Origin: Alphaproteobacteria bacterium | GTDB lineage: Bacteria; Pseudomonadota; Alphaproteobacteria; SPJN01 | Assembly (NCBI GenBank): GCA_965227065.1 | Contig: CBDDFN010000010.1 | Location: forward strand, 9,098-73,097 | Reading direction: 5' to 3' | DNA: 64,000 nt | Shown here: one piece after another, positions 936-41,972 of the stretch | Numbering within the stretch: the stretch's first letter is position 1 | How the letters are laid out: each line of letters begins with the position of its first letter | Made by a program: the position numbers and the translations under genes | Notes under the pieces: model-generated | The model's input: only the letters and a program-made list of their open reading frames with translations | The model's database searches: none | Told to the model about the DNA's origin: nothing

Positions 936-1682
936 CTAAACAAGAGGCTTTTCAGCACAAACCATATAGTTCACGCCAAGGTCCCGTCGGCTCAAGGTGA
1001 ACGCGTCAGTCAAGGGCGAATAGGTCACGCCGGACTTGTCGGTGACGGTGAGCCCCGCCCCAATCAAATAGCGCTCAAGCTCGGTCGGCGTAATGAATTT
1101 CGACCAATGATGCGTGCCGCGCGGCAGCCAGCGCAACACATATTCCGCACCCACAATGGCCAAAGCATAACTTTTGGGCGTGCGGTTGAGCGTGGCGACC
1201 AGCATCACCCCGCCGGGCTTCAGCATGGAAGCGCAATCCTTCAAAAAGGGCCGTGGGTGAGCGACATGCTCCACCACTTCCATATTGAGGATAATGTCGA
1301 ACCGCTCCCCTTCAGCGCCAAGGTCTTCAGCGGTTGTGGCCCGGTAATCGATGGACAAGCCCTGTTCGTGGGCGTGAACCGCGGCGGTCTTGATATTGGC
1401 TTCGGCCGCATCAGCGCCCACCACCGTGGCTCCCAGCCGCGCCATCGGCTCCGACAACAGCCCGCCGCCGCAGCCGATATCGAGCAGACGCAGCCCCTCA
1501 AATGGCGTCGCAGCCTTGGGGTCTCGGTCAAAATGCCGGGTAAGCCGGTCGCGAATGTAAGACAGGCGCACCGGATTGAATTTATGAAGCGGCGCAAATT
1601 TGCCCGCCGGGTCCCACCAATCGGCCGCCATGGCCGAGAAATGGGCGATTTCTGAGGGGTCGATCGAGGTTGCCTGGCTCAA
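936..1682 (-). CDS. ubiG: Bifunctional 3-demethylubiquinone 3-O-methyltransferase / 2-polyprenyl-6-hydroxyphenol methylase
   Basis: 248 aa; WWD..G.F.PLH..NP.R, the SAM motif [19 protein letters not shown], and MEVVEHV match UbiG family hallmarks. Confidence 0.9.
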
Positions 1683-1804
1683 GAGCTTATCCTTTGTCGT
1701 GGGTCGCTTCCTTGCTCAACCCGCTTGCCTTCGATATATAGCGCGCCGGAGGGCGGCGCCAACCGGTGCCGCCTGTTTGTATTCACGAAGGACACAAAAG
1801 GGCA

Positions 1805-3043: not shown

Positions 3044-3044
3044 G

Positions 3045-5318: not shown

Positions 5319-5378
5319 CCCGCCTCTTACCCGGACCGGTTATGTGAAGCTTTTGCGACGCACCACAGGCTGAGCAGG

Positions 5379-10039: not shown

Positions 10040-10651
10040 ATGAGACAAGGCCAAAATGGCAAGCGCTCCCGCGGGCGCGGTCGTCGTCAGCAAAACCCGT
10101 CCAACCGGTCTTACGAGTCGAACGGTCCCGACGTCAAAATTCGCGGCAATGCGAATACGATCGTCGAAAAGTATCAGACGCTGGCCCGCGACGCACAGTC
10201 GAGCGGGGATCGGGTGATGGCGGAGAACTATCTCCAGCACGCCGAACATTATCAGCGCATCATCAATTCGTTTGCACCGCCCGAACGGCCAGAACGGGAT
10301 AATGATGCACGGGATAATGATGCACGGGACAATGACGCAAGGGATACGGATGCGCGGGACGGTGACGCGAAAGCCGATGATCAAACCGGTCAGCGCGCCA
10401 AAGACAGTGGCACTGCCGACAAGGACGATGACGGCCCCGATGCCATCAAAGTGTCCGACACTGACGCGCCGCAGCCCGACATTCCCGATGATGCCCATGC
10501 GGCGACCTCTGCGGCCAACGGCAATGGCGAAGACAAGCCCAAGCGCCGTACGCGCCGGGCGCGCAAACCCGCAGCTGAGGTTGAAGCTGCCGATGATAGT
10601 GCCCCCGCAGAAAGCGGAAGTGAAGAAACCGCCGAAGCACAGGCGGGCTAA
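10040..10651 (+). CDS. DUF4167 domain protein with Arg-rich N-terminus and acidic repeat tail
   Basis: GRGRRQQNPSNRSYESNGPDVKIRGNANTIVEKYQTLARDAQSSGDRVMAENYLQHAEHYQRII matches the conserved alphaproteobacterial DUF4167 core. The tail carries (E/A)RDNDA pentapeptide repeats. Confidence 0.75.
   Translation: MRQGQNGKRSRGRGRRQQNPSNRSYESNGPDVKIRGNANTIVEKYQTLARDAQSSGDRVMAENYLQHAEHYQRIINSFAPPERPERDNDARDNDARDNDARDTDARDGDAKADDQTGQRAKDSGTADKDDDGPDAIKVSDTDAPQPDIPDDAHAATSAANGNGEDKPKRRTRRARKPAAEVEAADDSAPAESGSEETAEAQAG
10294..10372 (+). repeat. 15-bp tandem repeat (~5 units, cgggataatgatgca...) inside the DUF4167 gene
   Basis: cgggataatgatgcacgggataatgatgcacgggacaatgacgcaagggatacggatgcgcgggacggtgacgcg, translated RDNDARDNDARDNDARDTDARDGDA. 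Confidence 0.8.
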
Positions 10652-15563: not shown

Positions 15564-16556
15564 TTACTCCGCCGGAACTGCGTCAGGCTGGATTTCTTCA
15601 GCCTGTGTGTCTTCAGCAGGAGCGTCTTCAGCCTGTGCGTCTTCAGCCTGTGCGTCTTCAGCAGGAGCGTCTTCCGCAGGCGGGTTGTCACGCGCTTCGA
15701 TCAACTCGCGGGTCGGCTCATGAAGAATGACGACATCCGCTTCGTCCCGAAGCTTGGTGATCTTGGCTTCAATCGCATCTTCCATCAGCGCATTGGCCAT
15801 TTCAGAGCGTACGGCATCTGCGTTCTCGCGCCGGTCTTCAACCTTGATGACATGCCAGCCAAACTGGGTTTTCACCGGCTGTGCCGAATGGCTGCCCGGT
15901 TCCATCGCAAAGGCGGCGACCGAAAACGGCTCAACCATCTGATCTTGGGTGAACCAGCCCAGGTCTCCACCGCCCGGACCGCTGGGCCCGGTCGAATGTT
16001 CCTTGGCGAGCTCGGCAAAATCAGCGCCTTCATCGAGTTCTTTGATCAGCTCTTTTGCCTCATCTTCCTCGGCAACAAGAATGTGACGGGCCTTGGTTTC
16101 AACCGGCACAGTGATACCGAACTTGCCCTCGGCGATCGCCGCTGCAATCGCATCATCGCCAGCCACTTGTTGCGACAGGTCAGCAACATAGGCGTTGTAA
16201 AGCGTGTCGCGGCGCGCCGCATCAAGGGCGCGGGCCACTTCGGGCCGTTCGCCATAACCGGCCCGGGCGGCTTCTTCCGACAAAAGCTGTGCGGCAATGG
16301 AATATTCAACCAGCGCAGCCACAATTTGCGGCGGTGCAGTGTTGAAATCCGCGCCAACGGCGCGCGCAAACATTTCAATGTCTTTTTTGGTGACGGCAGC
16401 GCCATTGACGGTGGCGTAAATCTCGCCTTGCTCATCGGCCGGGGCTTGCGCCGCTTCAACCGGGACCTTGTCAGTGGCCGACATTTGGCCTGCGCCGAAC
16501 CAGCCAGCCGCTGCTCCAACCAAGAGCGCGACAAGCGCAATGATCACACGATCCAT
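15564..16556 (-). CDS. PpiC-type (parvulin) peptidyl-prolyl cis-trans isomerase with N-terminal signal/anchor and acidic C-terminal repeats
   Basis: Signal/TM MDRVIIALVALLVGAAAG. Parvulin domain (ARHILVAEEDEAKELIKEL...GGDLGWF...FGWHVIKVEDRR). Tail (AEDAQ/AEDAP)n. Confidence 0.8.
   Translation of the reverse strand: MDRVIIALVALLVGAAAGWFGAGQMSATDKVPVEAAQAPADEQGEIYATVNGAAVTKKDIEMFARAVGADFNTAPPQIVAALVEYSIAAQLLSEEAARAGYGERPEVARALDAARRDTLYNAYVADLSQQVAGDDAIAAAIAEGKFGITVPVETKARHILVAEEDEAKELIKELDEGADFAELAKEHSTGPSGPGGGDLGWFTQDQMVEPFSVAAFAMEPGSHSAQPVKTQFGWHVIKVEDRRENADAVRSEMANALMEDAIEAKITKLRDEADVVILHEPTRELIEARDNPPAEDAPAEDAQAEDAQAEDAPAEDTQAEEIQPDAVPAE
15585..15665 (-). repeat. 15-bp tandem repeat (~5 units) encoding the (AEDAP/AEDAQ)n tail of the PPIase
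   Basis: + strand reads gcctgtgtgtcttca gcaggagcgtcttca gcctgtgcgtcttca gcctgtgcgtcttca gcaggagcgtcttcc. The minus-strand translation is PAEDAPAEDAQAEDAQAEDAPAEDTQAEE. Confidence 0.8.
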
Positions 16557-28009: not shown

Positions 28010-28085
28010 GGGGCCGTAGCTCAGTTGGGAGAGCGCAGCAATCGCACTGCTGAGGTCAGGGGTTCGACTCCCCTCGGCTCCACCA
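28010..28085 (+). tRNA. tRNA-Ala (anticodon CGC), CCA encoded
   Basis: GGGGCCGTAGCTCAGTTGGGAGAGCGCAGCAATCGCACTGCTGAGGTCAGGGGTTCGACTCCCCTCGGCTCCACCA. G3:U70 Ala identity pair. Anticodon loop ATCGCAC. Confidence 0.9.
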
Positions 28086-28344
28086 ATTTTCTTCGAAAAT
28101 TGTTTTCGCCTTCGGTCTGTCCGTTGGCACAAAGTTCGACAGAGTTCGAACTTTGCGCGGGGGGGCCCCACCAATTTTCTTCGAAAATTGTTTTCGCCTT
28201 CGGTCTGTCCGATGGCGCAAAGTTCGATCGGGTTCGACCTTCGTGCGGGGGGCTCCACCACTATCCGCTATGCGGATATTGGGGCCACCCCGGTTTTCCG
28301 ATCGTCCAAATTCTCAATCGAATTTGTCCGCAGGGGCTCCACCA
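28086..28344 (+). repeat. Tandem array (2 intact + 1 degenerate unit) of a ~87-88-bp element, each ending in a tRNA 3'-end-like GG(G/C)(C/T)CCACCA
   Basis: Unit 1 (28086-28173) = ATTTTCTTCGAAAATTGTTTTCGCCTTCGGTCTGTCCGTTGGCACAAAGTTCGACAGAGTTCGAACTTTGCGCGGGGGGGCCCCACCA. Unit 2 (28174-28260) is near-identical. Unit 3 (28261-28344) has a diverged interior but ends GGGGCTCCACCA. Confidence 0.85.
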
Positions 28345-28379
28345 ATTTGCGCTTGGCACGCTCGACGTTGCAAGAATTA

Positions 28380-28952
28380 TCAGGCCGGACGCACCGCGCT
28401 TTGTAGCTCACCGGGATGACCCGGTGGCAATCCGGGGTCTTGCATCGGGCCAAGCCCGACCAGCCCATCAACCCAGACGCGAAAATCCTCGGAGTAATTG
28501 TTGCGGGTTAGTTGCCACCACGAGATCGCGCCGGGCCGGGCCATGATGGTCATCAGGCTCGCTGCGGACGATTGCCAGATTTCCTTGGTCTGGTGACCGG
28601 CCTTGTAATGAATGTACCCGGTCTGTGCGATTGACAACATGCCGCCCAAAAGGATGGAGACCCGAACCAGTTCCGATGCATTAAGCGTGCTCAAATCTCC
28701 GCCACCCTTCATCAGCAAATCCGCCAGGTCTTTGTTGCCGGCAACTTCAAGGGTGAAAGATTGATGCATCTGCGCACCGCTGATCTCAAGCGCGAGCGTG
28801 TTGGACAGGCGATTGAGGCGCAACTGCTGCGTGTTCTGGTTGAGCTGGATGCCAACAAACACCAGCGAACCAACCACAATTACCGCCGCGACAATCTCGG
28901 CAATATTGCTTATCGTCTCCAGCATCCCAGTCTCCCCTGCCGAATTTCGCAA
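28380..28952 (-). CDS. Hypothetical membrane protein
   Basis: N-terminal TM (IAEIVAAVIVVGSLVFVGIQL). No motif recognised. C-terminal ~30 aa are low complexity, so the 3' boundary is uncertain. Confidence 0.4.
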   Translation of the reverse strand: MRNSAGETGMLETISNIAEIVAAVIVVGSLVFVGIQLNQNTQQLRLNRLSNTLALEISGAQMHQSFTLEVAGNKDLADLLMKGGGDLSTLNASELVRVSILLGGMLSIAQTGYIHYKAGHQTKEIWQSSAASLMTIMARPGAISWWQLTRNNYSEDFRVWVDGLVGLGPMQDPGLPPGHPGELQSAVRPA

Positions 28953-29010
28953 GGATATTTCATTTAGTGTTGAGATGAAAGCAGGATTCGGAGCGACCGT
29001 CCCGGTTGCG

Positions 29011-29565
29011 CTACCACCGCATCATGGGCATGGGATTGAGCGGATGCCTGGGGACCCAGCCGCCGGCAATCCGCACCAGCGCCTTGTGGAAACCCTGATT
29101 GGGATAAAGCGCCCGGATGGCTTTAAGATCGGCGCCCCTGGCGCCAAAGCGTACCAAACCGATACTGACATCGGAATAATCGGCCCGGCGGAACCACTCC
29201 CCCCAGTTGGGCGCATCACCGCGCGCGGGGACCGCCGTCAACTTGTGATGCTCCATCACCATATCGGCGACAGCCTCGGACCATTTGGTTAGCCCGCGCG
29301 CCACCAATTCCTGCTGGGCATGGGCGTTGGACGGCTCAAGATAATCAAAGGTGCCATCAAGCCAGATGCCCGCATCATGATAGACACAGGCAATGGCAAG
29401 CGCGGTCAGTTCCCCATCGCCGGGTTGGTAGTCAGGCGCCAGGCTGCGCTGGTGCACCAGGGTGGTTTCATAGACCCGGCGGCAATGATTGCCATAGCCG
29501 CCCAAGTCCCGGCCGATCGCCTCTTTGTGGCGGTCCAGCAATTCGGTAATCAGATCCTGGCTCAT
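29011..29565 (-). CDS. HD-domain-like protein (putative metal-dependent phosphohydrolase)
   Basis: 184 aa with H...HD...HH...D spacing (NHCRRVYE; CVYHDAGIW; MEHHKL; RRADYSD) reminiscent of the HD superfamily. Confidence 0.45.
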   Translation of the reverse strand: MSQDLITELLDRHKEAIGRDLGGYGNHCRRVYETTLVHQRSLAPDYQPGDGELTALAIACVYHDAGIWLDGTFDYLEPSNAHAQQELVARGLTKWSEAVADMVMEHHKLTAVPARGDAPNWGEWFRRADYSDVSIGLVRFGARGADLKAIRALYPNQGFHKALVRIAGGWVPRHPLNPMPMMRW

Positions 29566-29651
29566 CGTGCTCCCTCTCCCGCAGACCCTGCATGATCAGG
29601 ACCAGGCAGGAGTTGCGCAACCCCACCGGCGGAGTGGGCGGCGAAAAGCGG

Positions 29652-30533
29652 TCAGGATCGTTCCCGGTCATCCAGCAGCGCCAGCCCGAAGAACCGGCCC
29701 TTGATGATCCATGACAAGCCAAAGGCCCACATGGCAATGGCTTCGACAATGAAGGTGACATTGTTGGGGTCCCACCAATGAACATCATGGCCATTGATCT
29801 GTTCGACAGCCGTTTTGGTCCCCATTGCCAGCAGCACGCACACAATGGTGATGGCCGCCGCGCGATAGAAGAAATTGCGGCGGCGCTTGGCAGGCTTGAG
29901 ATTGCCTTGCGCATCATAATGTTCGCCGGGGATGATGCGGGTAAACACAAAGCCCGAATAATAGGCCAGAAACAGAAAGAAGATCACCGCCGTCACATTA
30001 TGGATCATGTCGGAGGGCTGGATCAGCACGAACAAATCGGCCGTGTCGGGCGGCAACACCCCGATGGCTTCGCCGGGCGTGCCGGTGGACTGGAACGACA
30101 AAAATGCCCGGCCATCAAACACTTGCTTTTCGCACCCGCTATGAGATGCGGGGAAAAGCGCGTTGGAGAGCGCGCACAGGCCCGCCAGTGTGGCCAGCCG
30201 GTTTTCCCATTTGTTTTCGCCGCTATAGGCGATGAGAAACGAGCCGATAAAAATCAAGCTGGCGGAAAAAACACCGCCCCAGAACCGGGCATAATAATAA
30301 TGAGATATGGAATCATAATAACAAGCGCCGAGAACTGATCCCAATAACAGAACAAGGGGCAAGGTCAGAGAAATGATTCCGACCATAGCCGCCATCAATC
30401 TCTGACGAATACGATAATATTCGTTTTCAGGTGCCCTCGCGCTCGAATCGGGTTGAAATCTCTGTTCCGGCGCGTCGATGAGTAATGACATCATGTCCCC
30501 CGACATGTCCCTCAACGCAAAATATATCCCCAC
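29652..30533 (-). CDS. Hypothetical polytopic membrane protein (AT-rich, foreign-looking codon usage)
   Basis: 293 aa with ~7 hydrophobic segments. The DNA is strikingly AT-rich relative to flanks (e.g. ataataataatgagatatggaatcataataacaagc). Confidence 0.5.
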   Translation of the reverse strand: MGIYFALRDMSGDMMSLLIDAPEQRFQPDSSARAPENEYYRIRQRLMAAMVGIISLTLPLVLLLGSVLGACYYDSISHYYYARFWGGVFSASLIFIGSFLIAYSGENKWENRLATLAGLCALSNALFPASHSGCEKQVFDGRAFLSFQSTGTPGEAIGVLPPDTADLFVLIQPSDMIHNVTAVIFFLFLAYYSGFVFTRIIPGEHYDAQGNLKPAKRRRNFFYRAAAITIVCVLLAMGTKTAVEQINGHDVHWWDPNNVTFIVEAIAMWAFGLSWIIKGRFFGLALLDDRERS

Positions 30534-30801
30534 GCACTTTTCATTTTAATAGTACATTTTCACTATTTTTTGACGGAATAGGGTCTTGGCTGCGCCCGCC
30601 CGCCCACGTCCGCAGGGCGTGTCTGCCCCTGTATCTGCAGGTCGGCGCCGGTTCAATGCTCCCCCCTTTTTATTTCGTGTACAGTGTATTATAAGTCGCT
30701 CGCTTCCATTCACGCGTCGCGGTGAGCGGAACACGGGCAGGGCTTTGGGGGGCCTGGGCTTGACCGGCATTTGCCGCGCGCACAGCCAATACGGGGCCAT
30801 T

Positions 30802-31653
30802 ATGTCCAACACATCCACACCTGATGCTCAGGCCAAGGCTGACGAGGTTTCAGCCAACGTCAATGAAGAGCAGAACTATGGTGCCAATCCCGTCGAAATG
30901 CGCGAGACCGATCACTATCAGGACGAATATGTCTACGGCTTCGTCGACAAATGGGACCAGCTCATCGACTGGGAGGCGCGCGCCAGGTCCGAAGGCCAGT
31001 TTTTTATCGATATTCTCAAGGCGCGCGAGAAAAAGACGGTTCTGGACGTTGCAACCGGGACAGGCTTTCATTCTGTTCAGTTGATGAAAGCAGGGTTTCA
31101 TGTCGTTTCCGCCGACGGGTCAGCGGAAATGCTGACCAAGGCGTTCGACAATGCGCGCGACCGCGATCTGGTGCTGAAAACAACACAGGCCGACTGGCGC
31201 TGGCTCAATCAGGACATTCACGGCAAGTTTGATGCCGTCATCTGCCTGGGCAATTCCTTCACCCATATTTTTGACGAGCATGACCGGCGCCGCGCCTTTG
31301 CCGAGTTCTATGCCGCGCTCAAACATGACGGCATCCTGATCCTCGATCAGCGCAATTATGACGCCATTCTGGATGTCGGCTTCCAGTCCAAGCACAAATA
31401 TTATTATTGCGGCGATCAGGTGTCGGCCGAACCTGAATATGTCGATGACAGCCTCGCCCGGTTTAAATATGAGTTTGCCGACGGCTCAAAATATCACCTC
31501 AATATGTTTCCTCTACGAAAGAATTATGTCCGCAAGCTGATGACCGAAGCGGGATTTCAGCGCGTGAAAACCTATGGCGATTTTCAGGAAAGCTATGAGG
31601 AAAACGAACCCGACTTTTTCGTCCATGTCGCGGAGAAATCTTACGATGAATAA
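30802..31653 (+). CDS. Glycine/sarcosine N-methyltransferase (GSMT)
   Basis: ATG 30802. GNMT-fold motifs VLDVATGTGFHSVQLMKAGF, DAVICLGNSFTHIFD, ILILDQRNYDAIL, FFVHVAEK parallel the GNMT/GSMT family. Confidence 0.85.
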   Translation: MSNTSTPDAQAKADEVSANVNEEQNYGANPVEMRETDHYQDEYVYGFVDKWDQLIDWEARARSEGQFFIDILKAREKKTVLDVATGTGFHSVQLMKAGFHVVSADGSAEMLTKAFDNARDRDLVLKTTQADWRWLNQDIHGKFDAVICLGNSFTHIFDEHDRRRAFAEFYAALKHDGILILDQRNYDAILDVGFQSKHKYYYCGDQVSAEPEYVDDSLARFKYEFADGSKYHLNMFPLRKNYVRKLMTEAGFQRVKTYGDFQESYEENEPDFFVHVAEKSYDE

Positions 31654-32485
31654 GCAAAGCCCCGAAGCCATTGAAATCGCTGAAAATTATTATGACAGCA
31701 CGGATGCAGACAATTTCTACCATGCGATCTGGGGCGGCGAAGATATTCACATCGGCCTGTATGAGCCCGGCGATACGATTGCGGAAGCCAGCCACAAGAC
31801 CGTGCTGGCCATGGCTGAAAGGTTGTATGGCCTGGATCACACCTCCAAGGTGCTCGACATCGGGTCGGGCTATGGCGGGGCGGCGCGCGTTCTGGCGCGG
31901 AAATATTCCGCCCTTGTGACCTGCTTGAACCTGTCCAAGGTTGAAAATGACCGCAACGCGCAAATGAATGCCGACCAGAACCTGGCCCACAAGATCACGG
32001 TGGAGCATGGCTCATTCGACGCCATCCCGGCCGATCCCGGCAGCTTTGACATTGTGTGGTCACAGGATGCGATCCTGCACGCGCCCGACCGGCTGAAAGT
32101 GCTGGATGAAGTGGCACGTGTTCTGAAGCCCGGCGGTCAGTTCATTTTTACCGACCCCATGCAGGCTGACGGTTTGACTGACACCGACGCGCTGACGCCT
32201 ATTCTGGAACGGATTCATCTGCCCAACCTTGGTTCAATCGAGTTTTACCGCAAAGCACTGGCCGAACGCGGCTTTGACGAAGTGCGGGTCGATGTGCTGA
32301 CCCATCAGTTGCGCGCCCATTATGCCCGCGTCGGTGAAGAGCTTGCAGCCCAGCGCAGCGCTCTGTCGGACAAAATTTCCGATGAATATGCCGAACGCAT
32401 GCTCAAAGGGCTGCAACATTGGGTGGACGGTGCCGACAAGGGATTGCTCGCCTGGGGCATCCTGCATTTCAAAAAGGCGGGATAA
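31646..32485 (+). CDS. Sarcosine/dimethylglycine N-methyltransferase (SDMT)
   Basis: ATG 31646 overlaps the GSMT stop (ATGAATAA). SDMT hallmark YYDSTDADNFYHAIWGGEDIHIGLY and SAM motif VLDIGSGYGGAARVLA. Confidence 0.85.
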   Translation: MNKQSPEAIEIAENYYDSTDADNFYHAIWGGEDIHIGLYEPGDTIAEASHKTVLAMAERLYGLDHTSKVLDIGSGYGGAARVLARKYSALVTCLNLSKVENDRNAQMNADQNLAHKITVEHGSFDAIPADPGSFDIVWSQDAILHAPDRLKVLDEVARVLKPGGQFIFTDPMQADGLTDTDALTPILERIHLPNLGSIEFYRKALAERGFDEVRVDVLTHQLRAHYARVGEELAAQRSALSDKISDEYAERMLKGLQHWVDGADKGLLAWGILHFKKAG

Positions 32486-32578
32486 TGCCCGCCCCGCCGG
32501 CCCGCCACGGGCGCGCCACCCAAGGTTGGCTCAAAGGGACTGAACCCCGCCGTTGCACTGACGGCAAAAAGCCTTGTT

Positions 32579-34033
32579 TTGGTCTTTGTCCTGTTTGGCG
32601 TGTTGATGCAGGACAGCGCCTCGGCGCTGTTCACCACCCTGAAAGACGGCATTATCGCCTCGGTGAGCTGGTTTTATATCGGCGCGGTAACCGGCTGCCT
32701 GATCCTTGTTATCTGGTTGATGGCCAGCCGGTTTGGCGCGATCAAGCTGGGGCGGACCGATGAAGAACCGGAATTTTCGTATGTCAGCTGGTTTGCCATG
32801 CTGTTTGCCGCCGGCATGGGCATCGGCCTGATCTTCTGGAGCGTGGCGGAGCCGGTCACCCACTTTATCGGCAATCCGTTCGTGGCCGATGGCGAGACAC
32901 CGCGCGCCGCGCAGGTTGCCATGCGCCTGACTTTTCTGCATTGGGGTCTGCACCCCTGGGCGATCTACGCTTTGGTCGGTTTGATCTTTGCCTATTTCGG
33001 TTTCCGCAAGGGCCTGCCGCTGACGCCGCGCTCGGCCCTGCATCCCATAATCGGTGATCGCATCTATGGCCCGATCGGCCATACGGTGGATATCTTGTCG
33101 GTCTTTGCCACAACATTCGGCGTTGCCACCTCGCTGGGGCTGGGGGCCAAACAGATCAATACCGGGCTTGAGCATCTGTTTGGCCTGTCAGTGTCGACAG
33201 GACATCAATTGCTGATCATCGGGGTGATTACGCTGATCGCGGTGACGTCGGTCGTGTCGGGCCTGGAACGGGGCATAAGGCTGTTGTCGGAAGCCAATCT
33301 TTGGCTGTCGGTCGTATTGCTGGGCTTTGTGCTCAGCTTCGGGCCCACCGCCTATATGATTGACACGCTGCTGCAATCGACGGGCGACTATCTGCAAAAC
33401 ATTGTGGCGTTGAGTTTCTGGACCGACGCCAATCAGAACCGCGGATGGCAGGCAAGCTGGACCACATTTTACTGGGGCTGGTGGCTAAGCTGGGCGCCCT
33501 TTGTGGGATTGTTCGTCGCGCGGATATCGCGCGGACGGACCATACGTGAATTTGCGTTCGGCGTGCTGCTGGTGCCAACCTTGCTGACCTTTGTATGGCT
33601 GTCGGTGCTGGGAGGCGCCGCCCTTCATGCCGAACTGCATGGCGCAGGCGGGATGGTGGCGGCGGTGCAAGACGATGTGACCTTGTCGCTTTACGCGCTG
33701 ATCGAACTGCTCTCACCAGGGGTGATCGGCACCATCATGGCCGGTGTCGCAACCATTTTGATCATCACCTATTTTGTAACCTCGTCAGACTCCGGCACGC
33801 TTGTGGTCAACACCATCTTGTCGGTCGGTGACACCAATCCACCGGTGACCCACCGGGTGATCTGGGGGGTCAGCGAAGGGGCGGTGGCCGCCGTTCTGCT
33901 GCTGGCAGGGGGATTGAAGGCGCTTCAGGCTGCGGCGATTTCGGCTGCTTTGCCTCTGGCCATTATTCTGGTGCTGATGACTTACGGGTTTATCAAGGCG
34001 CTTTATCAGGACATGCCCAGCAAGCATCACTGA
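32579..34033 (+). CDS. BCCT family transporter (betaine/carnitine/choline type)
   Basis: 484 aa. BCCT signature region FAMLFAAGMGIGLIFWSVAEPVTHF and a Trp-rich TM8-like segment (GWQASWTTFYWGWWLSWAPFVGLFVARISRGRTIREF). No ATG/GTG precedes TM1 in frame, so the start is TTG 32579 or CTG 32558. Confidence 0.85.
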   Translation: MVFVLFGVLMQDSASALFTTLKDGIIASVSWFYIGAVTGCLILVIWLMASRFGAIKLGRTDEEPEFSYVSWFAMLFAAGMGIGLIFWSVAEPVTHFIGNPFVADGETPRAAQVAMRLTFLHWGLHPWAIYALVGLIFAYFGFRKGLPLTPRSALHPIIGDRIYGPIGHTVDILSVFATTFGVATSLGLGAKQINTGLEHLFGLSVSTGHQLLIIGVITLIAVTSVVSGLERGIRLLSEANLWLSVVLLGFVLSFGPTAYMIDTLLQSTGDYLQNIVALSFWTDANQNRGWQASWTTFYWGWWLSWAPFVGLFVARISRGRTIREFAFGVLLVPTLLTFVWLSVLGGAALHAELHGAGGMVAAVQDDVTLSLYALIELLSPGVIGTIMAGVATILIITYFVTSSDSGTLVVNTILSVGDTNPPVTHRVIWGVSEGAVAAVLLLAGGLKALQAAAISAALPLAIILVLMTYGFIKALYQDMPSKHH

Positions 34034-34506
34034 TCCGATTTCGGGATTTCGCCGACATCGAGAATGGGCGAAGCGTCGAGCGCTTCGGCGTCCATCATTT
34101 GCGCCACCCGTTCCAGCGCGGCGCGGAGCATATGCTGTTCCCAGACCTCTAATTTGGTGAATTCGCGGGTAAAGTTGGACTGCATGAGTTCGGGTGCATC
34201 GGCAAGCCGGGACTGGCCCGCCTCACTTAGGGTCACCTCGACAACCCGCCGGTCGGTTTGCGAGCGTGTCCGTGTCACCAACCCGGCACGTTCAAGCCGC
34301 TCCACCACAGCGGTCACGGTGGCATGGGCAAGACTGACATCCTGGGCGACCGCGCCGATGGAGGGCGAGCCTTTCCGGCTGATCGATTGCAGGACGAGCA
34401 ATTGGGGAACCGTGAGGCCGGAGCGTTTCACCAGCTGTTTGGAATGCAGGTCAATCGCGCGGGTGATCCGGCGAATGGCCACCAGAATATCATCAAACTC
34501 GTCCAT
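34027..34506 (-). CDS. MarR family transcriptional regulator
   Basis: Winged HTH (LTVPQLLVLQSISRKGSPSIGAVAQDVSLAHATVTAVVERLERAGLVTRTRSQTDRRVVEVTL). Confidence 0.8.
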   Translation of the reverse strand: MDEFDDILVAIRRITRAIDLHSKQLVKRSGLTVPQLLVLQSISRKGSPSIGAVAQDVSLAHATVTAVVERLERAGLVTRTRSQTDRRVVEVTLSEAGQSRLADAPELMQSNFTREFTKLEVWEQHMLRAALERVAQMMDAEALDASPILDVGEIPKSDQ

Positions 34507-34571
34507 GCATCGGGCATCCAAGACAAAGAAGCCGGTCTTTTATCCCGTTCCCGGCGCGGGGAAAAGCGGCT

Positions 34572-35862
34572 TTACGCTTCATCCAGGAAACTCTTCAGCG
34601 TTTCATAAAGCAGCTTGGCGCCCTGTTCGATGTCATTCCAATGGGTCCATTCGTCAGGCGCATGGCTGATGCCGCCCACCGAGGGGACGAAAATCATGCC
34701 CGCCCGGGTAAACTCCGCCATAAACTGGGTGTCATGGCCCGCCCCTGAGGGCATGGTCTGGTGGCTCAATCCCAATTGCTGGGCAAAGTGGCTGAAGCGG
34801 TCAATCACATCGGGGTGGCATGGCGCGGGATCCAGCCAGCTCAACTCATCAAAATCAAAATGCAGATTGTGTTTGCGCGCGATGGCCGACAGGGGTCTTG
34901 CGGCAGGCCAAACCGATGGCCTTCATCACCTCAAGATCAATATCGCGGCCAACCAGAGAGAATTCCGCCTCGCCGGGAACCGTGTGGGGATTGCCCGGTT
35001 TCAGCTCAACCTTGCCGACGGTCAGCCGGCTTTTGTCGGTGCCTTCCTCGGCAATGATGCGCGGGATTTCATGGGCAAAATCAGCCAGCCCCATAAAGGC
35101 GTCCGAGCGCATATTCATCGGCGCGGTGCCCGCATGGTTGGCCTTGCCGCCAAGGCGCACCATCCATTTGAACACGCCCGAAATGCCTTCAACAACACCG
35201 ATCTGCTTGCCGGTCTGTTCGAGCACCGGGCCTTGTTCAATATGCAGCTCACAAAAGGCGTGGACAGAGCCCGGTGCGCGGCGCGCATCAAGCGCACGGT
35301 CGGGATCAAAGCCCTGCGCGGTCATGCAATCGGTCAGCTTTTCGCCCGATGCCGTGCGCGCCTGATGGATCCATTCAAGCGTCGTCGTGCCGGTCAGCGC
35401 CTGCACACCGAACATGCCGCCAAACCGGCCCTCTTCATCGGCAAAGGCCACCACTTCAAAGGGCCGTTCCGGCGGTGTGGGCAATGCGGACAAAACCCGC
35501 GCGCATTCAAGGCCCGCCAGAACCCCCAGCGTGCCATCAAACATGCCGCCTGCCGGAACACTATCAATATGTGATCCGGTCATCACACAGGGCTTGTCGC
35601 TGTCGAACCAGCGGCCAATGACATTGCCCGCCTCATCCATGCGTGCGGTGCCGCCCGCTTCGGTGATCTTGGCCATCAGCCAGTGACGCGCCTCCATATC
35701 CTGGGCCGTGAAGCCAAGGCGGAACACGCCGGGTTCCTCGCCGCGCTTGCCGATCTGGGCCAGTTCAAGAAGGTCAGACCGCAACCGGTCAAGCACGATA
35801 CCGTCCGCCGGGGCGGTGTCTGTGCCGGGTTGAACGGACATGGATGATGATTTGTAACTCAT
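34572..35862 (-). pseudogene. M20-family Zn-amidohydrolase (N-carbamoyl-L-amino-acid hydrolase / allantoate amidohydrolase type), split by a single frameshift
   Basis: Two adjacent minus-strand ORFs (35862..34855 and 34844..34572) together cover one AmaB/AllC-like protein (GSHIDSVPAGGMFDGTLGV ... HAGTAPMNMR ... GAGHDTQFMAEF...IFVPSVGGISHAPDEW). The frame changes near 34880-34895 (...AIGLA | AARPLSAIARKHNLHFDFDELSW...). Confidence 0.7.
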
Positions 35863-36079
35863 TGTGCCTCGTCTTTAGGCATTTACACGCAAAATAATTA
35901 TAATGCCTTCGTCAAATTTGACGACCGCGATTCGTTTCTTTATGATCATAAACGTGACCGGCCCCGAAGAAAATTTCTTGCGGGGCTTTCGTTTTTTGCC
36001 CACCTACGCGGGCCCAACGCAAAGCGAGAGAGCTCCGCCCCTTCGCGTGACCTTTAGCGTTAGAACAAATATCTTCGCT

Positions 36080-36463
36080 ATGCTGATCGGCCTTGTCGCT
36101 GTTATCGCCACCCCCGCGCTCGGCCTCGAGCTGCGCAATGCCGACGCGCGGGCCGGATTTGCAAGCCTGGGCTGGACCGATGCGCCCGATGGTGAAGCCG
36201 TGCTTGAATGGAATGACGGCACGGGCTGGCAGGAACTTTATCGCGGCACCGACAAAGCAAGCACCGTCACCGGCCTTGACGAAGGCGCGTATCAATTCCG
36301 GCTTGTCGCCCCCGATGGTACAGTGTCCGAGCCGTTGACCTTTACGGTTGAGCATCACGCGCTGAGCCTTGCCCTGCAATTTTTCGGGGCCGGGGCGCTC
36401 TTGTTCGTCTTGCTGATTGCCCTGCTTGTCCGGCCCACCCCCGACACGGGATCGCCGTCATGA
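36080..36463 (+). CDS. Small exported/membrane-anchored protein (signal peptide, beta-rich domain, C-terminal TM), coupled to the SSS transporter
   Basis: MLIGLVAVIATPALG signal, then ...WTDAPDGEAVLEWNDGTGWQELYRGTDKASTVTGLDEGAYQFRLVAPDGTVSEPLTFTV (FN3-like pattern), then a TM. Stop overlaps the SSS start (ATGA). Confidence 0.5.
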   Translation: MLIGLVAVIATPALGLELRNADARAGFASLGWTDAPDGEAVLEWNDGTGWQELYRGTDKASTVTGLDEGAYQFRLVAPDGTVSEPLTFTVEHHALSLALQFFGAGALLFVLLIALLVRPTPDTGSPS

Positions 36464-37887
36464 TCGAGCACGCCGTGCTGGCCCCGCAAACAGCCGCCAT
36501 CATCATTGCCCTGTTCGGTGTTTTCTGGATCGGGCTTGGCTGGTGGATCGGCCGGTCCAACAAAACGCTGGATGATTTCATGCTGGCGGGCCGCAATGTC
36601 GGGCTGGGGCTTGCCGCAGCCACCGCCATGGCCACCTGGGTGACGTCCAACACCACGATGGTGGCCCCGCAATTGACCTATCAGCTTGGCATTTGGGGGA
36701 TGGTCGGCTATTCGCTCGGCGCAGTCGGGCTGCTGCTGTTTGCCCCGCTCGCCCGGCGGATTCGCGAGATCATGCCGCACGGCTTTACCAGCGGTGATTT
36801 CATCCGCCGCCGCTACGGTACGCTGGCCTGGGCCGTCTTTCTGATTATATCCTTCTTCTATGCGCTGGGCTGGCTGATCACGCTGGGCATGGCCGGTGGC
36901 GTGCTGGTCGAGGCCCTGTCTGGTATTCCCTATCTCTACGGCATGTCGGTGATTGTGCTGGTCTGTACGCTTTACACCGTCTTTGGCGGATTGCGCGCGG
37001 TGATCGGCACCGACTTTGTGCAGACCGTGATCATTTTGGTGGGCGTTGCTCTCATTGCTTATCTTGTGCTCGACAAGGTCAGCTTTGAAACCATCCACCA
37101 ATCCCTTGAAGCGGAACGTCCGGGGCTGCTCAATCTGTTGCTGCCCGCCTCGATCATGTTCTTGTTCAACAATCTGTTTTTCGGTGTGGGCGAGATTTTC
37201 CACTCCAATGTGTGGTGGAGCCGCGCGTTCGCCTTCGGCCGCCATGTTGGCTTTAAAGCCTATTTGCTGGGCGGACTGCTGTGGCTTCCCGTCCCGATTG
37301 TGGCCGGTTTTGTGGCGCTGGCAGCGCCGGCACTGGGCGTCAATGTGCCGTCCGCCGATATGGTCGCGCCGTTGGTGGCGGGACAAGTGCTGGGCGAAGT
37401 TGGGGCCATCCTGGTCTTTATCGTTGTTTTCGCAGCGCTCGCCTCAAGCCTTGATTCGGTGCTCGCGGCAACCGCGGACCTGATCAGCAATGACATTGTC
37501 AAAGGCCTGTTCTGGAAAACCGCCAGCGATGATCAACTGCGCAAGGTCGCGCGCAACACGATCCTGATATTGGGCCTCGCTGTGTGGCTTGTCTGCTTGA
37601 TCCGGGTGTCGACCCTGGGCGAGTTGTTGCAGTTCACCGGCGCGTTTGTGGCCAGCACCATCTGGCCCATTGCCATCGGGCTTAAAACCAATCGCCTGGG
37701 TAATCTGGGTGCCGCGCTCGCCATGGCTGTGGGGACCGCCACCGGCCTGTGGGCGTTTTTTGCCATCGGCTTTTACACCGCCGCTTTGGTCGCAACCGGC
37801 GTATCACTCATCATCAGCGTGATCTTTGTGCTGAGCGACGGCACACGGTTTGATTTCGAAAAATTGCGCGAGGAGGCCTCCTCATGA
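36460..37887 (+). CDS. Sodium:solute symporter (SSS) family transporter
   Basis: 475 aa, ~13 TM. SSS family features (FMLAGRNVGLGLAAATAMATWVTS; GGLRAVIGTDFVQ). Confidence 0.85.
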   Translation: MIEHAVLAPQTAAIIIALFGVFWIGLGWWIGRSNKTLDDFMLAGRNVGLGLAAATAMATWVTSNTTMVAPQLTYQLGIWGMVGYSLGAVGLLLFAPLARRIREIMPHGFTSGDFIRRRYGTLAWAVFLIISFFYALGWLITLGMAGGVLVEALSGIPYLYGMSVIVLVCTLYTVFGGLRAVIGTDFVQTVIILVGVALIAYLVLDKVSFETIHQSLEAERPGLLNLLLPASIMFLFNNLFFGVGEIFHSNVWWSRAFAFGRHVGFKAYLLGGLLWLPVPIVAGFVALAAPALGVNVPSADMVAPLVAGQVLGEVGAILVFIVVFAALASSLDSVLAATADLISNDIVKGLFWKTASDDQLRKVARNTILILGLAVWLVCLIRVSTLGELLQFTGAFVASTIWPIAIGLKTNRLGNLGAALAMAVGTATGLWAFFAIGFYTAALVATGVSLIISVIFVLSDGTRFDFEKLREEASS

Positions 37888-38003
37888 TTTCAGCTGCCTT
37901 TCTGGAAATGCTGGTCTGGCCCGCGCTGATCCTTGTTTCCCTTTCCCCGGTCGTCCTGATCGGTTTGTTGCTTAAAGACGTGAAGGACAAAACCCTATGG
38001 TGA
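37884..38003 (+). CDS. Micro-ORF: 39-aa single-TM peptide, ATGA-coupled to the SSS transporter stop
   Basis: MISAAFLEMLVWPALILVSLSPVVLIGLLLKDVKDKTLW; AGGAGG lies 7 nt upstream. A second 36-aa ORF (37997..38107, MVTEDLKDQVEFDRSRPDIYGDVHPKELIPEYSGRL) overlaps its end. Confidence 0.3.
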   Translation: MISAAFLEMLVWPALILVSLSPVVLIGLLLKDVKDKTLW

Positions 38004-38138
38004 CAGAAGACTTAAAGGACCAGGTCGAATTTGACCGGTCCCGCCCCGACATTTACGGCGATGTTCACCCCAAGGAACTGATCCCAGAATATTCAGGAAG
38101 ATTATGAGCCTTTAACGGGGCTCGATAGCCAGCACATC

Positions 38139-39069
38139 GTGTCGGCCAAGCAGTTCAACCGGGATATGCTGCTGCAACTGTTCCGGCTGGCCGCCAAGTT
38201 TGAGGCCAATCCGCGGCGCTATTCCAATCCGCTGAAGGGCAAGGTTCTGATCTCGGCCTTTTATGAACCCAGCACGCGGACGCGCCTGTCCTTTGAAAGC
38301 GCGTGGCACCGCATGGGCGGTGACATCATGTCGATCACAGACCGCGCCACCACCGGCATCGCCAAGGGTGAGTCGCTCAGTGACATTGGCGAGATGTTCA
38401 ACAATTACGGCGACTGTGTCGTGCTGCGCGACGTCAATGCGGGATCGGTGTTCGAGATGGCGCAAAGCCTGCGTGTGCCGATCATCAATGCGGGCAATGG
38501 CGTGGATGAGCATCCCACCCAGGCACTGGCTGACCTTTATACGATCCTGAAATGGCGGCCCGCCCTGCTTGACCCCAAATGCGAAAAAATCCGCATCGGC
38601 ATTGTCGGTCTGCCCAACCGGATGCGCACGGTGCGCAGCCTGCTGATCATGCTGTCGCATTTTTCCTACGCGTTCGAAGAAGTCGTCGTCATTCATGACG
38701 GCAAGCGCCAGGAACTGTTCGGCGCGGGCCAGCGTGAGGAGCTTGAGAAGGCGGGGCTGACTATCCGCGAAACCACCGTGTTGCGCGATGAACTGCCGGG
38801 CCCTCGACGTGGTCTATATCAATGCCATTGTGTGGGAGAAGGACGATTTTCAGGTCATGAATGACGCCTTCCGGCTGGACCGGACCTCCCCGCTCAAACA
38901 AGGCGCGATTGTCATGCACCCGCTGGCGCGCGGTGACGAGCTCGACACCAGCCTCGATGACACGCCGCACAATTGGTATTTTGCGCAAGCGCGCGGCGCG
39001 GTCTTTGTCCGCCAGGCTCTGCTGACCTGCCTGGTCCAGCGGATCGACCGTGTCATGGATGTGATCTAA
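38139..39069 (+). pseudogene. Aspartate-carbamoyltransferase-like (ATCase/PyrB-fold) transcarbamoylase, split by a single frameshift
   Basis: GTG 38139. Carbamoyl-phosphate motif STRTRLSFE, and HPTQ (ATCase-type, not OTCase HPxQ). The C-terminal half continues in another frame from ~38795 (ALDVVYINAIVWEKDD ... VMHPLARGDEL ... NWYFAQARGAVFVRQALL). Confidence 0.7.
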
Positions 39070-39088
39070 CAAAAGGAAGTCTCTGAGT

Positions 39089-41113
39089 ATGTGCGGCATT
39101 GCCGGTATTTTTCACCGCGACCCTCAACAGCCCCTCGACCGCCAATTGCTCGCCAATATGGCGGCGATCCAGTATCATCGCGGCCCCGACGAATTCGGCG
39201 TGCGCTGCATGGATGATCGCGGCATTGGCTTTTCCCATGCCCGCCTGTCGATCATTGATCTGGACGAAACCCGGGCGCGTCAGCCTTTTGAAAGCAAGGA
39301 TGGCCGGCTGCTGCTTGCCCATAATGGCGAATTCTATGACTTCAAGCGCATCCGCGCTGATCTGACCAGCCGGGGCGACCGCTTCCAGTCAAAGTCGGAT
39401 TCTGAAATCATTCTGGGGCTTTATCCCCGGCTGGGGCTTGAAAAAACCCTGATCAATCTGCGCGGCGAGTTTGCCGTGGCGCTGTATGACAAGGACGAGG
39501 ACGCGCTGTTTCTGGTGCGCGACCGCTTCGGCGTCAAGCCGCTTTACTGGACGATGACCGAAGACGGGCTGGTGTTCGGTTCTGAAATCAAGGTGCTGTT
39601 TGCGCATCCCAAAGTGGAGCGGCGTCTTCATGAAGAAGGCGTGCTGCACCAGCTCATTCAGGTGATGGTGCCCGGCACCACCGCCTTTGAAGGGGTGCAT
39701 CAGATCAAGCCGGGCCATGTGCTGCGCGTCAAACGCTCGGGCACCAGCTTCCAGATCGATGATCTGCAATATTGGGATTATGAGTTCCCCCATGCTGATG
39801 CCCATCACGATCCGCGCAGTGAAGCGGACAATATCGAGCTTGTCCGCGAAAAGCTGCTGGAGGCGGTGACGCTGCGCCTTGAGGCAGACGTGCCGGTCGG
39901 CTGTTATCTGTCGGGCGGGATCGATAGCTGTTCAATCCTGGGACTGTCTGCCGCCGTCCGGCAAGACCCGGTGAAGGCGTTCACCATCGGCTTTGATGAC
40001 GCCGATTATGACGAAACCCCGGTCGCAACCGAGATGGCTGAGGCCACCGGCGCGGATCAGGAGGTGCTGCGGCTTAACGCCAATCATCTCTACGGGCATT
40101 TTGAAAAGACGCTGTGGCATACAGAGCGGACCATCTACAACACGCTCGCGGTCGCCAAATATCTCATGAGCCAGCGGGTCAATGAGCTTGGCTACAAGGT
40201 TGTGCTGACCGGTGAGGGCTCTGATGAGCTGTTTGCAGGCTATCCCGCCTTCCGGCGCGATCTGTTCCTGCACGGCCTGCCTGATTTGGACGCTGATGAG
40301 CGCAAGACCTGGGAATCCATGCTGGGCGAGTCAAATGCCTTGTTCAAAGGCGCCATGCTGGCCGAGGATGAGCTTGATGACCCCCATCTGTCGGCCAAGA
40401 TTGGTTTCACGCCCAGCTGTTTGCAGCCCTGGCTGGCCTGCACGCACACGGCACGCGGGCTCATGCAGGCCGATTTGCGGGAGCGGTTGACCCGTTACCA
40501 TCCCGGCGAGGCGATTGCAGATACGTTCGACACGACAGCCCTGTCGGGGCGGCATCCGCTCGACCGGGCTCAATATGTCTGGTCGAAAACCATGCTTGAG
40601 GGTCAGATCCTGACCTGGGGCGGGGACCGGGTTGATATGGCCAATTCGATGGAGGCGCGGCCCGCCTTCCTTGATCATCATCTGGCTGCAGCCGCTGTCA
40701 CCATCCCGCCCATTCACCGCATCAAGGAGCGTAAGGAAAAATATGTCCTGCGCGAAGCGATGAAAGGGCTTTTGCCCAAAGTGCTCTATGAGCGTGAGAA
40801 ATTCGCCTTCATGGCCCCGCCCGCGCACACCGATCAGCAAAAATGGGCATCCATGATGGTGCTCGCTGATGAGCATCTGTCAGACGAGGCGGTCACAGCG
40901 GCGGGCGTGCTTGATCACAAGGCGGTTCACGACATGCTCGAAGAAGCGGTGGCCGATGAAACCAGCCGGGCACGTAAAGTCCAGCTTGATGCGGTGATCA
41001 ACCATGCGCTTGGCGTGCAGATCCTGCACAAGCATTTTATCGCCCAGGATGTTCCCGCCCTGGCCGCCCAGCGCGCCAAGGAACTGGGCTGGAGCGCCGA
41101 GCGCGCCGCTTAG
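39089..41113 (+). CDS. Asparagine synthetase B-family glutamine-hydrolysing amidotransferase (long, 674-aa form)
   Basis: N-terminal nucleophile MCGIAGIF. PP-loop SGGIDSC. An extended ~120-aa C-terminal region beyond canonical AsnB. Confidence 0.85.
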   Translation: MCGIAGIFHRDPQQPLDRQLLANMAAIQYHRGPDEFGVRCMDDRGIGFSHARLSIIDLDETRARQPFESKDGRLLLAHNGEFYDFKRIRADLTSRGDRFQSKSDSEIILGLYPRLGLEKTLINLRGEFAVALYDKDEDALFLVRDRFGVKPLYWTMTEDGLVFGSEIKVLFAHPKVERRLHEEGVLHQLIQVMVPGTTAFEGVHQIKPGHVLRVKRSGTSFQIDDLQYWDYEFPHADAHHDPRSEADNIELVREKLLEAVTLRLEADVPVGCYLSGGIDSCSILGLSAAVRQDPVKAFTIGFDDADYDETPVATEMAEATGADQEVLRLNANHLYGHFEKTLWHTERTIYNTLAVAKYLMSQRVNELGYKVVLTGEGSDELFAGYPAFRRDLFLHGLPDLDADERKTWESMLGESNALFKGAMLAEDELDDPHLSAKIGFTPSCLQPWLACTHTARGLMQADLRERLTRYHPGEAIADTFDTTALSGRHPLDRAQYVWSKTMLEGQILTWGGDRVDMANSMEARPAFLDHHLAAAAVTIPPIHRIKERKEKYVLREAMKGLLPKVLYEREKFAFMAPPAHTDQQKWASMMVLADEHLSDEAVTAAGVLDHKAVHDMLEEAVADETSRARKVQLDAVINHALGVQILHKHFIAQDVPALAAQRAKELGWSAERAA

Positions 41114-41170
41114 CAACGTATTTGGGGTGGCGTGCCGCCCGAAGCGCGCAAGTGGCTCTTGGGTGACGGG

Positions 41171-41387
41171 TGCCAACGGACAGACTGAAGGCGAAAACAA
41201 TTTTCGAAGAAAATTGGTGGAGCCCCCGCACGAAGGTCGAACCCGGTCGAACCTTGTGCCAACGGACAAACCGAAGGTGAAAACAATTTTCGAAGAAAAT
41301 TGGTGGAGCCCCCCGCGCAAAGTTCGAACTCTGTCGAACTTTGTGCCAACGGACAAACCGAAGGCGAAAACAATTTTCGAAGAAAAT
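41171..41387 (-). repeat. Mirror-image tandem array (2 intact + 1 partial unit) of the same ~87-bp element as 28086-28344, abutting the second tRNA-Ala
   Basis: The + strand reads TGGTGGAGCCCCCCGCGCAAAGTTCGAACTCTGTCGAACTTTGTGCCAACGGACAAACCGAAGGCGAAAACAATTTTCGAAGAAAAT, which is the reverse complement of unit 1 at 28086 with only a few mismatches. Confidence 0.85.
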
Positions 41388-41463
<76 letters not shown>

Positions 41464-41618: not shown

Positions 41619-41972
41619 TTAACGGTCGTCGTCGTCATCCTTGACGACTTCAACCTCGACGGTGACATCATCATCGTCATCATCGTCAGTCAGGCCGACG
41701 GTGACATCGTCCTCGTCATCATCGTCGATCAGCGCATCATCGCCCTCATCGTCTTCGACCTCATCCTCGTCTTCATCCTTTTCGGGTGCCGGTTTGGGCT
41801 CCTCTTCAGGACGTTGACGCCGCGGCTTCAGCACACGCTCAGGCTCGAACGCGGTCTCGCATTTCGGGCAAATGAGCGGAAACTCCGCCTGCATATCGTA
41901 GAAACGCGCACCACAAGAGGGGCATGTGCGCTTTTTGCCCCATTCATCTTTGGCCACCGCCGCTTGCTCCAT
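41619..41972 (-). CDS. TIGR02300 (FYDLN_acid) family zinc-ribbon protein with poly-Asp/Glu tail
   Basis: [11 protein letters not shown]...CPKCETAF, followed by an extreme acidic tail ([34 protein letters not shown]). Start taken at MEQAAV. Confidence 0.7.

Follow-up and report, generated by a model that had tools for sequence, protein, structure and literature searches.

How does a series of short repeats come to stand directly behind a transfer RNA (tRNA) gene, each repeat ending as the tRNA itself ends? The question is raised by a stretch of 64,000 nucleotides (nt) from Alphaproteobacteria bacterium (contig CBDDFN010000010.1 of assembly GCA_965227065.1, positions 9,098 to 73,097), here called the window, in which a preliminary description had pointed to three tandem units behind a tRNA-Ala gene. 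We find that a second array, missed in that first reading, stands in mirror image behind a second tRNA-Ala gene. We consider it probable, though well short of certain, that both arrays are 3′ trailers of the two convergent tRNA-Ala genes, built by recombination from ~80-90 nt modules of types A, B and T that end in the decamer GGCTCCACCA.

Two mirrored arrays behind convergent tRNA-Ala genes

The features of the locus are given below; handles such as L011 and L048 denote contigs of relatives.

28010-28085, plus strand: tRNA-Ala(CGC) (ARAGORN; Rfam tRNA model, 64.3 bits)
28086-28173, plus strand: unit W1a, type A, 88 nt, terminus GGCCCCACCA (sequence; Tandem Repeats Finder, TRF; 97% identity to W2a)
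28174-28260, plus strand: unit W1b, type A, 87 nt, terminus GGCTCCACCA (TRF; 92% identity to W2b)
28261-28344, plus strand: unit W1c, type B, 84 nt, terminus GGCTCCACCA (alignments to units of L011, L013 and L048)
28345-28379, plus strand: short distal trailer remnant (ATTTGCGCTTGGCACGCTCGACGTTGCAAG...) 3′ of array 1
28345-41169: strain-variable island, bracketed by the inverted repeats of tRNA plus array
41114-41169, minus strand: degenerate 3′-end copy CCGTCACCC and T-type trailer segment GCGCTTCGGGCGGCACGCCACCCC... (alignment; blastn)
41170-41214, minus strand: unit W2c, partial type A, first 45 nt, ending TTGGCAC (nhmmer, 27.8 bits)
41215-41300, minus strand: unit W2b, type A, 86 nt
41301-41387, minus strand: unit W2a, type A, 87 nt
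41388-41463, minus strand: tRNA-Ala(GGC), convergent with tRNA-Ala(CGC) (ARAGORN; Rfam)

Array 1, formed by W1a, W1b and W1c, is confirmed as a real feature, and the three head-to-tail units first described are borne out by ARAGORN, Rfam, TRF and shuffled sequences. The first unit begins directly 3′ of the CCA of tRNA-Ala(CGC), and the terminal 10 nt of that tRNA, GGCTCCACCA at 28076-28085, are copied at the end of each unit with the consensus GGC(T/C)CCACCA. TRF reports 2.1 copies with a period of 88 (score 298, 88% matches). The first 30 nt of a unit, with at most one mismatch, match the window five times and none of 100 shuffles. At the same tolerance the decamer occurs 19 times against 5.6 expected, a count that no shuffle attained, with exact copies at 28251, 28335, 41301 and 41215 and the variant GGCCCCACCA at 28164. 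A further GGCTCCACCA at 37213 was considered as a right attachment site (attR) and rejected as a chance match inside the coding sequence of an SSF transporter.

W1a and W1b are 89% identical to each other, and W1c is only 61-62% identical to either. The statement that the third unit keeps nothing except its terminus was nevertheless wrong, since alignments identify it as a distinct type B module conserved in relatives: W1c is 92.6% identical to L048 1295-1388 and scores 45 bits with nhmmer. The hairpins quoted earlier, CGAAAA-TTG-TTTTCG and AAAGTTCGA-CAGAGT-TCGAACTTT, are present. Also supported is the view that the array is neither coding nor made of clustered regularly interspaced short palindromic repeats (CRISPR); the arrays contain no unique spacers, and the entire period of 86-88 nt repeats. 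Past the last unit, the remnant at 28345-28379 abuts the stop codon of a minus-strand open reading frame (ORF) at 28380.

Array 2 (41387-41170, minus strand, 2.5 units) mirrors array 1 and likewise begins at the base after the CCA; TRF gives it 2.6 copies with a period of 87 (score 386, 92% matches). The two tRNA genes are 92% identical overall, with differences confined to the anticodon arm. The genes and their arrays constitute an inverted repeat whose 171-nt arms are 92% identical and lie 13.1 kb apart, and the longest exact stretch common to both loci measures 65 nt. Units at matching positions are more alike (97% for W1a and W2a, 92% for W1b and W2b) than the neighbours W1a and W1b within one array, whereas the 100 nt upstream of the two tRNA genes show 50% identity and are thus unrelated. 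This position-wise similarity within otherwise unrelated surroundings points to block gene conversion between the loci, and so to concerted evolution instead of independent amplification.

Trailer turnover between strains and orientation of the island

Four further samples yielded contigs that carry variants (>90% identity) of the arylsulfotransferase-like gene adjoining tRNA-Ala(CGC). Three sibling contigs (L048, L049 and L050; three samples, two assemblers) are 95% identical to the window across the left flank and the tRNA gene. The preliminary description had named a comparison of array length between strains as a check, and the make-up does differ: the trailer reads A-A-B in the window and B-T-T′ in the siblings, which have no type A unit. 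More generally, modules vary in number and type from species to species and also among strains of 95-98% identity.

In the siblings the trailer of tRNA-Ala(CGC) runs directly into the 3′ end of AsnB (on L048 within 1-1457), whereas in the window AsnB abuts the tRNA-Ala(GGC) array. Accordingly, blastn aligns L048 1-1202 with window 39962-41163 in plus orientation (91.8%) and, 175 bp further along L048, positions 1377-4029 with window 28087-25435 in minus orientation. A block of genes for proteins of 293 and 184 amino acids is inverted in the window relative to L011 (5429-6895) and L013, and the orientation of the island relative to its flanks differs in the window from that on every relative contig. 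The junctions that differ between strains fall inside the arrays, as recombination between inverted repeats would give, and the island thus appears to have been inverted.

Several independent metagenome contigs stop within or right beside a tRNA-Ala gene or its trailer (L012 1-140; L014 1; L047 1-2; L051 1-4), from which we conclude that these repeats break assemblies. The same four contig ends, and an island orientation found in the window alone among the contigs seen, are what could be said for an assembly artefact in the form of a collapsed or mis-joined repeat. We regard this explanation of the arrays as barely credible, because the units diverge by ~10%, the differences between the arrays are scattered, and comparable arrays were obtained from other samples by separate assemblies and different pipelines (L011-L014 and L048-L050). 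It had also been proposed that a unit found nowhere else and missing from all relatives would be a strain-specific duplication artefact. The first half of that description holds, as the unit occurs nowhere outside this lineage, yet the second does not, as relatives carry it.

Distribution and the trailers of relatives

Outside the lineage, searches for the units returned only chance similarity. A 19-mer from the unit core gave 10 single chance matches in unrelated phyla among 185,579 GTDB species genomes. A gapped pattern designed to capture both type A and type B gave seven chance matches, in coding sequence with no tRNA nearby, among JGI metagenome contigs, a collection that evidently lacks this lineage as searched, since the JGI contig L011 was itself unmatched. 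The same pattern had no match in IMG/VR, and blastn of the units found none in the plasmid and phage collections. Within ~160 kb of lineage DNA, an nhmmer profile of nine units placed copies exclusively in tRNA-Ala trailers. In these searches, the units are thus restricted to one alphaproteobacterial lineage, which is poorly sampled, and within it to the two tRNA-Ala trailers.

Based on aroA homologues, the window has two relatives above 80% identity, the next best reaching at most 68%. The contigs of both close relatives carry the same two convergent tRNA-Ala genes within the same flanks, and the genes stand 1.6 kb apart in L013, 4.3 kb apart in L011 and 13 kb apart in the window. Their trailers are built differently. 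L013 and L014 have a single type B unit of 79 nt 3′ of tRNA-Ala(GGC), with the decayed terminus GGCTCCATCA, and L013 has no unit 3′ of tRNA-Ala(CGC). In L011 and L012 a 200-bp unit, in which a T segment is joined to a type B module, follows both tRNA genes; the two copies in L011 are 95.5% identical, their T segment is lineage-specific, and L011 also retains a decayed type A unit ending in GGCTCCGCCGA. Decayed unit ends in relatives include CCATCA and CCGCCGA. Module T, which contains a long imperfect palindrome (AGCTTCGGGTGGCACGCC ... GGCGTGTCCTCCGAAGCT), was located as follows.

L011 4965-5090 and 9123-9248, minus strand: module T, flanked by TTCGCTCTTC direct repeats
L048 1150-1294, minus strand: module T, a unit of its own in the siblings, with the decamer terminus

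Remnants of T also persist in the window. The segment at 41114-41169 past array 2, of which 41114-41150 is the T remnant, has homologues in the trailer of L011 and, in the siblings, in the trailer next to AsnB. The remnant at 28345-28379 past array 1 resembles this segment more weakly, by eye, and its MAFFT alignment was not convincing. In the outgroup contig L023 (aroA identity 66%; 5290-5370, minus strand), tRNA-Ala(GGC) is followed by an intrinsic terminator, GGCGACCC-TGGC-GGGTCGCC and then TTTGTTTT, and by no repeat.

This distribution bears on the idea that the units are a small non-autonomous mobile repeat targeting tRNA 3′ ends, comparable to miniature inverted-repeat transposable elements (MITEs) or repetitive extragenic palindromic (REP) elements. 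Short, hairpin-rich units at two loci and the palindromic T segment between TTCGCTCTTC repeats in L011 would suit such an element. However, no copy lies outside tRNA-Ala trailers in the lineage DNA, all public collections searched lack a match, and neither terminal inverted repeats nor target-site duplications were seen by eye around A or B units. The common block order at both loci also fits conversion better than independent insertion, and we rate a mobile repeat as very improbable.

Resemblance of the units to tRNA and to structured RNA

According to the preliminary description, each unit was in effect a new terminus of a tRNA 3′ half. A link between the units and the tRNA 3′ end is supported, but the stronger wording was an overreach: identity to the tRNA is secure for the last 10 nt only, likeness to a T-loop is weak, and ARAGORN and Rfam call the two real tRNAs alone and no unit as tRNA-like. 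Local and global alignments of the unit bodies against the tRNA, compared with shuffles, are not significant past the last 10 nt, on which ground we reject a degraded whole tRNA or 3′ half as the source of the unit. The exception is GGGTTCGAC, which W1b shares with the T-loop region of the tRNA; in W1b and W2b this match was equalled in 8-16 of 500 and in 12 of 2000 shuffles (p ~0.006-0.03). Every module type (A, B and T) also has a weaker GGTTCRA-like motif, located 20-25 nt upstream of the decamer, which suggests, without proving it, an old fragment reaching from the T-loop to the CCA.

W1c can be folded into the exact acceptor stem of tRNA-Ala (GGGGCC/GGCUCC, including the G3:U70 pair) followed by CCA, but in the 95%-identical sibling GGGGCC reads GGTTCC and the helix is broken. 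We therefore reject W1c as a mimic of a tRNA-Ala minihelix. Across nine units RNAalifold yields -3.38 kcal/mol with an unfavourable covariation term of +0.52, a test of low power given nine units from few independent lineages, and the hairpins of types A and B are out of register. Folding z-scores range from -2.2 to -3.3 for some units, while several others fold no better than shuffles. Conserved RNA structure is thus not supported, at low statistical power. The Rfam RtT model (RF00391) has no match in the window, either at its gathering score or at E values up to 10. The one match to a transfer-messenger RNA (tmRNA) model is to tmRNA_permuted at 28058-28296; it scores 26.6 bits, where the gathering score is 47, and pairs the T-arm and CCA of the real tRNA with GGGGCC of W1c. 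A permuted tmRNA was rejected, as the match is sub-threshold and partial, no tag reading frame is present and ARAGORN finds no tmRNA.

A terminator scan was empty in both arrays, so that the units are rejected as intrinsic terminators. Since no intrinsic terminator separates the tRNA from the units, these are probably transcribed as its 3′ trailer. This would permit a functional role, in which RtT-like or tRNA-mimicking RNAs are cut from the tRNA-Ala precursor and act as CCA-ending small RNAs (sRNAs) or as decoys for RNase P, the CCA-adding enzyme or alanyl-tRNA synthetase. Such a role could draw on the uninterrupted path from tRNA to units, the good folding of some of them, the acceptor stem available to W1c and the use of its GGGGCC in the tmRNA_permuted match. 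It could also draw on Escherichia coli tyrT/RtT, where the architecture is the same and one unit yields the RttR sRNA according to a passage in PMC3318445 that cites Bosl and Kersten 1991 (see also bioRxiv 10.1101/2024.07.17.603846). Nevertheless, we saw no evidence for the units as selected RNA. The CCA ends have decayed in copies of L011 and L013, the W1c helix is lost in a sibling and the trailers turn over fast, all of which argues against selection for an RNA product. The weak consensus with unfavourable covariation, the misaligned hairpins, the units that fold no better than shuffles and the lack of RtT, tRNA or tmRNA matches at gathering score tell against it as well, as does the lack of units behind tRNA-Ala(CGC) of L013 and behind the outgroup tRNA. 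We judge a functional RNA to be an improbable explanation.

The island and the possibility of integration scars

The island encodes an SDMT-like methyltransferase, a BCCT transporter, a carbamoylase-family amidase, an SSF transporter, an aspartate carbamoyltransferase-like fragment and AsnB, together with a glycine/sarcosine N-methyltransferase that scores 484 bits against a cut-off of 350 for NF051855. Positions 30586-34033, which contain the N-methyltransferase, the SDMT-like protein (a match below cut-off) and the BCCT transporter, look like a cluster for de novo synthesis of glycine betaine as judged from gene content, and this cluster is absent from L011 and L013. The 241-amino-acid ORF at 38139-38864 aligns with aspartate carbamoyltransferase models of about 300 positions over roughly their first 180 alone, and may be a truncated gene or pseudogene. 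Searches with Pfam and NCBIfam identified no integrase, recombinase or other mobile-element gene among the ORFs between the tRNAs (28.3-41.2 kb), the gene lists of the L011 and L013 loci contain no integrase, and no displaced tRNA 3′ fragment was found elsewhere in the island.

Of the two origins offered in the preliminary description, serial integration scars would mean that elements with tyrosine integrases inserted at the tRNA-Ala 3′ end, each duplicating an attachment (att) core from T-loop to CCA, that later deletions left ~80 nt of each, and that the island is what remains of their cargo. Indirect support comes from viruses. The exact 25-nt 3′ end of tRNA-Ala occurs in 20 IMG/VR contigs (L026-L045), 17 of which lack a full tRNA-Ala gene and instead carry tRNA-identical fragments of 27-48 nt, often near contig ends and of a length typical of phage attachment sites (attP). 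Judging by their extent and position, these fragments are likely attP or other att sites of phages that integrate into tRNA-Ala. The strain-specific DNA between the tRNAs agrees with this scenario, as do the several module types that each end in the decamer and the weak T-loop-like motifs 20-25 nt upstream of it, a spacing that corresponds to the extent of an attP fragment.

Other observations tell against the scar scenario. Neither the inter-tRNA segment of the window nor the genes called at the L011 and L013 loci include an integrase, an excisionase, or a phage or integrative and conjugative element (ICE) gene. Exact identity to the tRNA covers 10 nt, compared with 27-48 nt in real attP fragments; an att core usually spans 15 nt or more, starting in the T-loop or anticodon loop and reaching the 3′ end. 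The same trailer repeats after every CCA, which leaves no foreign DNA between copies, and no displaced 3′ fragment turned up elsewhere in the island. We therefore consider serial integration an unlikely source of the arrays, although a less remote one than a functional RNA.

Other repeats were seen in the window. A repeat with a 39-nt period at 41657-41761 is Asp-rich coding sequence in a small acidic gene upstream of tRNA-Ala(GGC), and the counterparts of this gene in L022 and L023, which are more remote relatives, carry the annotation FYDLN_acid (PF09538). Two TRF arrays with a 15-nt period (10294-10368 and 15595-15674; 4.4 and 5.3 copies, 82-84% matches) probably reflect coding repeats that stay in frame.

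Recombination as the probable source of the arrays

Tandem amplification, the other origin offered at the outset, fits best: each unit carries the same post-CCA trailer, number and composition vary between strains, and copies decay. In the explanation that we favour, the first displaced tRNA 3′ end would either go back to a duplication of the 3′ part of the tRNA together with its trailer or be a scar of att type at the T-loop; we retain the latter for this very first copy because the IMG/VR fragments mark tRNA-Ala as a genuine integration target. Once identical decamer-plus-trailer segments lay side by side, unequal homologous exchange between them could expand, contract and reshuffle the arrays. 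The two inverted loci would be kept alike by gene conversion, and a reciprocal exchange between the same inverted repeats would flip the 13-kb island.

Several points weigh against this explanation. Three module types with different bodies share one decamer, which exceeds what a single tandem duplication gives and leaves room for repeated site-specific events. A perfect decamer beside a diverged T-arm-like part needs continual re-homogenisation or selection. The sample covers about four lineages. For the inversion, one of the two junctions was recovered and the reciprocal tRNA-Ala(GGC) junction is missing in the siblings: no variant of the 184-amino-acid protein was found from a sibling strain, and contig L052 from Logan stops short of the array. 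The orientation of the window moreover comes from a single contig, in which an error across the 65-nt exact repeat is possible.

A bolder variant would assign the arrangement a purpose. The tRNA genes and their arrays might be an integrase-free recombination hinge whose modules are kept for capturing, exchanging and flipping islands, they might supply RtT-like, CCA-ending small RNAs that interact with the tRNA-Ala machinery, or both. We hold this to be a long shot.

Comparison with known systems

Tandem repeats distal to the E. coli tyrT tRNA gene that copy the 3′ end of the tRNA have been known since 1978. In the MG1655 tyrT-tyrV region we find 3.1 copies of a 178-bp repeat (95% matches), the unit end AATCCTTCCCCCACCACCA being the last 19 nt of tRNA-Tyr. 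These repeats are annotated rttR and tpr and served as a positive control for the Rfam RtT model, which gave four matches of 133-137 bits. As in tyrT/RtT, the tandem units in the window directly follow the CCA, end in a copy of the tRNA 3′ terminus, contain GGTTCGA-like motifs and lie in the transcription path of the tRNA. However, there is no homology in sequence or structure, and the RtT model finds nothing here. At 84-88 nt the units have half the length of those in E. coli, and the copied tRNA end measures 10 nt here and 19 nt there. The units also come in several module types and form two convergent arrays that evolve in concert and bracket an island. On these comparisons the arrays share the architecture of tyrT/RtT, their nearest precedent, but belong to another sequence family.

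Direct repeats of a tRNA 3′ end, formed by left and right attachment sites (attL and attR), reportedly flank genomic islands and prophages (Reiter 1989; Williams 2002). The present locus resembles such sites in having a tRNA 3′ end duplicated downstream beside a strain-variable island, and in that viral contigs carry the same tRNA-Ala 3′ end as 27-48 nt fragments. Unlike them, it has no integrase, its repeats share 10 nt of identity and are separated by 75-78 nt of repeated trailer in place of element DNA, and its island is bounded by inverted instead of direct tRNA ends.

Inverted copies of ribosomal RNA genes, tRNA genes or insertion sequences (IS) mediate RecA-dependent inversions. Here too, inverted homologous segments bracket DNA of variable orientation, with breakpoints inside the repeats. 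The repeats differ in being very short (~170-260 bp, 90-97% identity) and in consisting of a tRNA 3′ part with trailer modules; no dedicated invertase is present, and one of the two junctions was observed.

Implications

The most notable feature of the locus is the paired, co-evolving and island-bracketing arrangement of its arrays. A second, unrelated case resembling tyrT suggests that recombination at tRNA 3′ ends gives rise to this architecture repeatedly and not just once. For metagenome assembly it is relevant that contigs repeatedly break at such repeats. Inverted repeats of a tRNA plus trailer, at ~170-260 bp, can homogenise each other and mark the breakpoints of a strain-variable and apparently invertible island with a putative glycine-betaine cluster, which bears on how flexible islands may turn over beside tRNA genes without a resident integrase.

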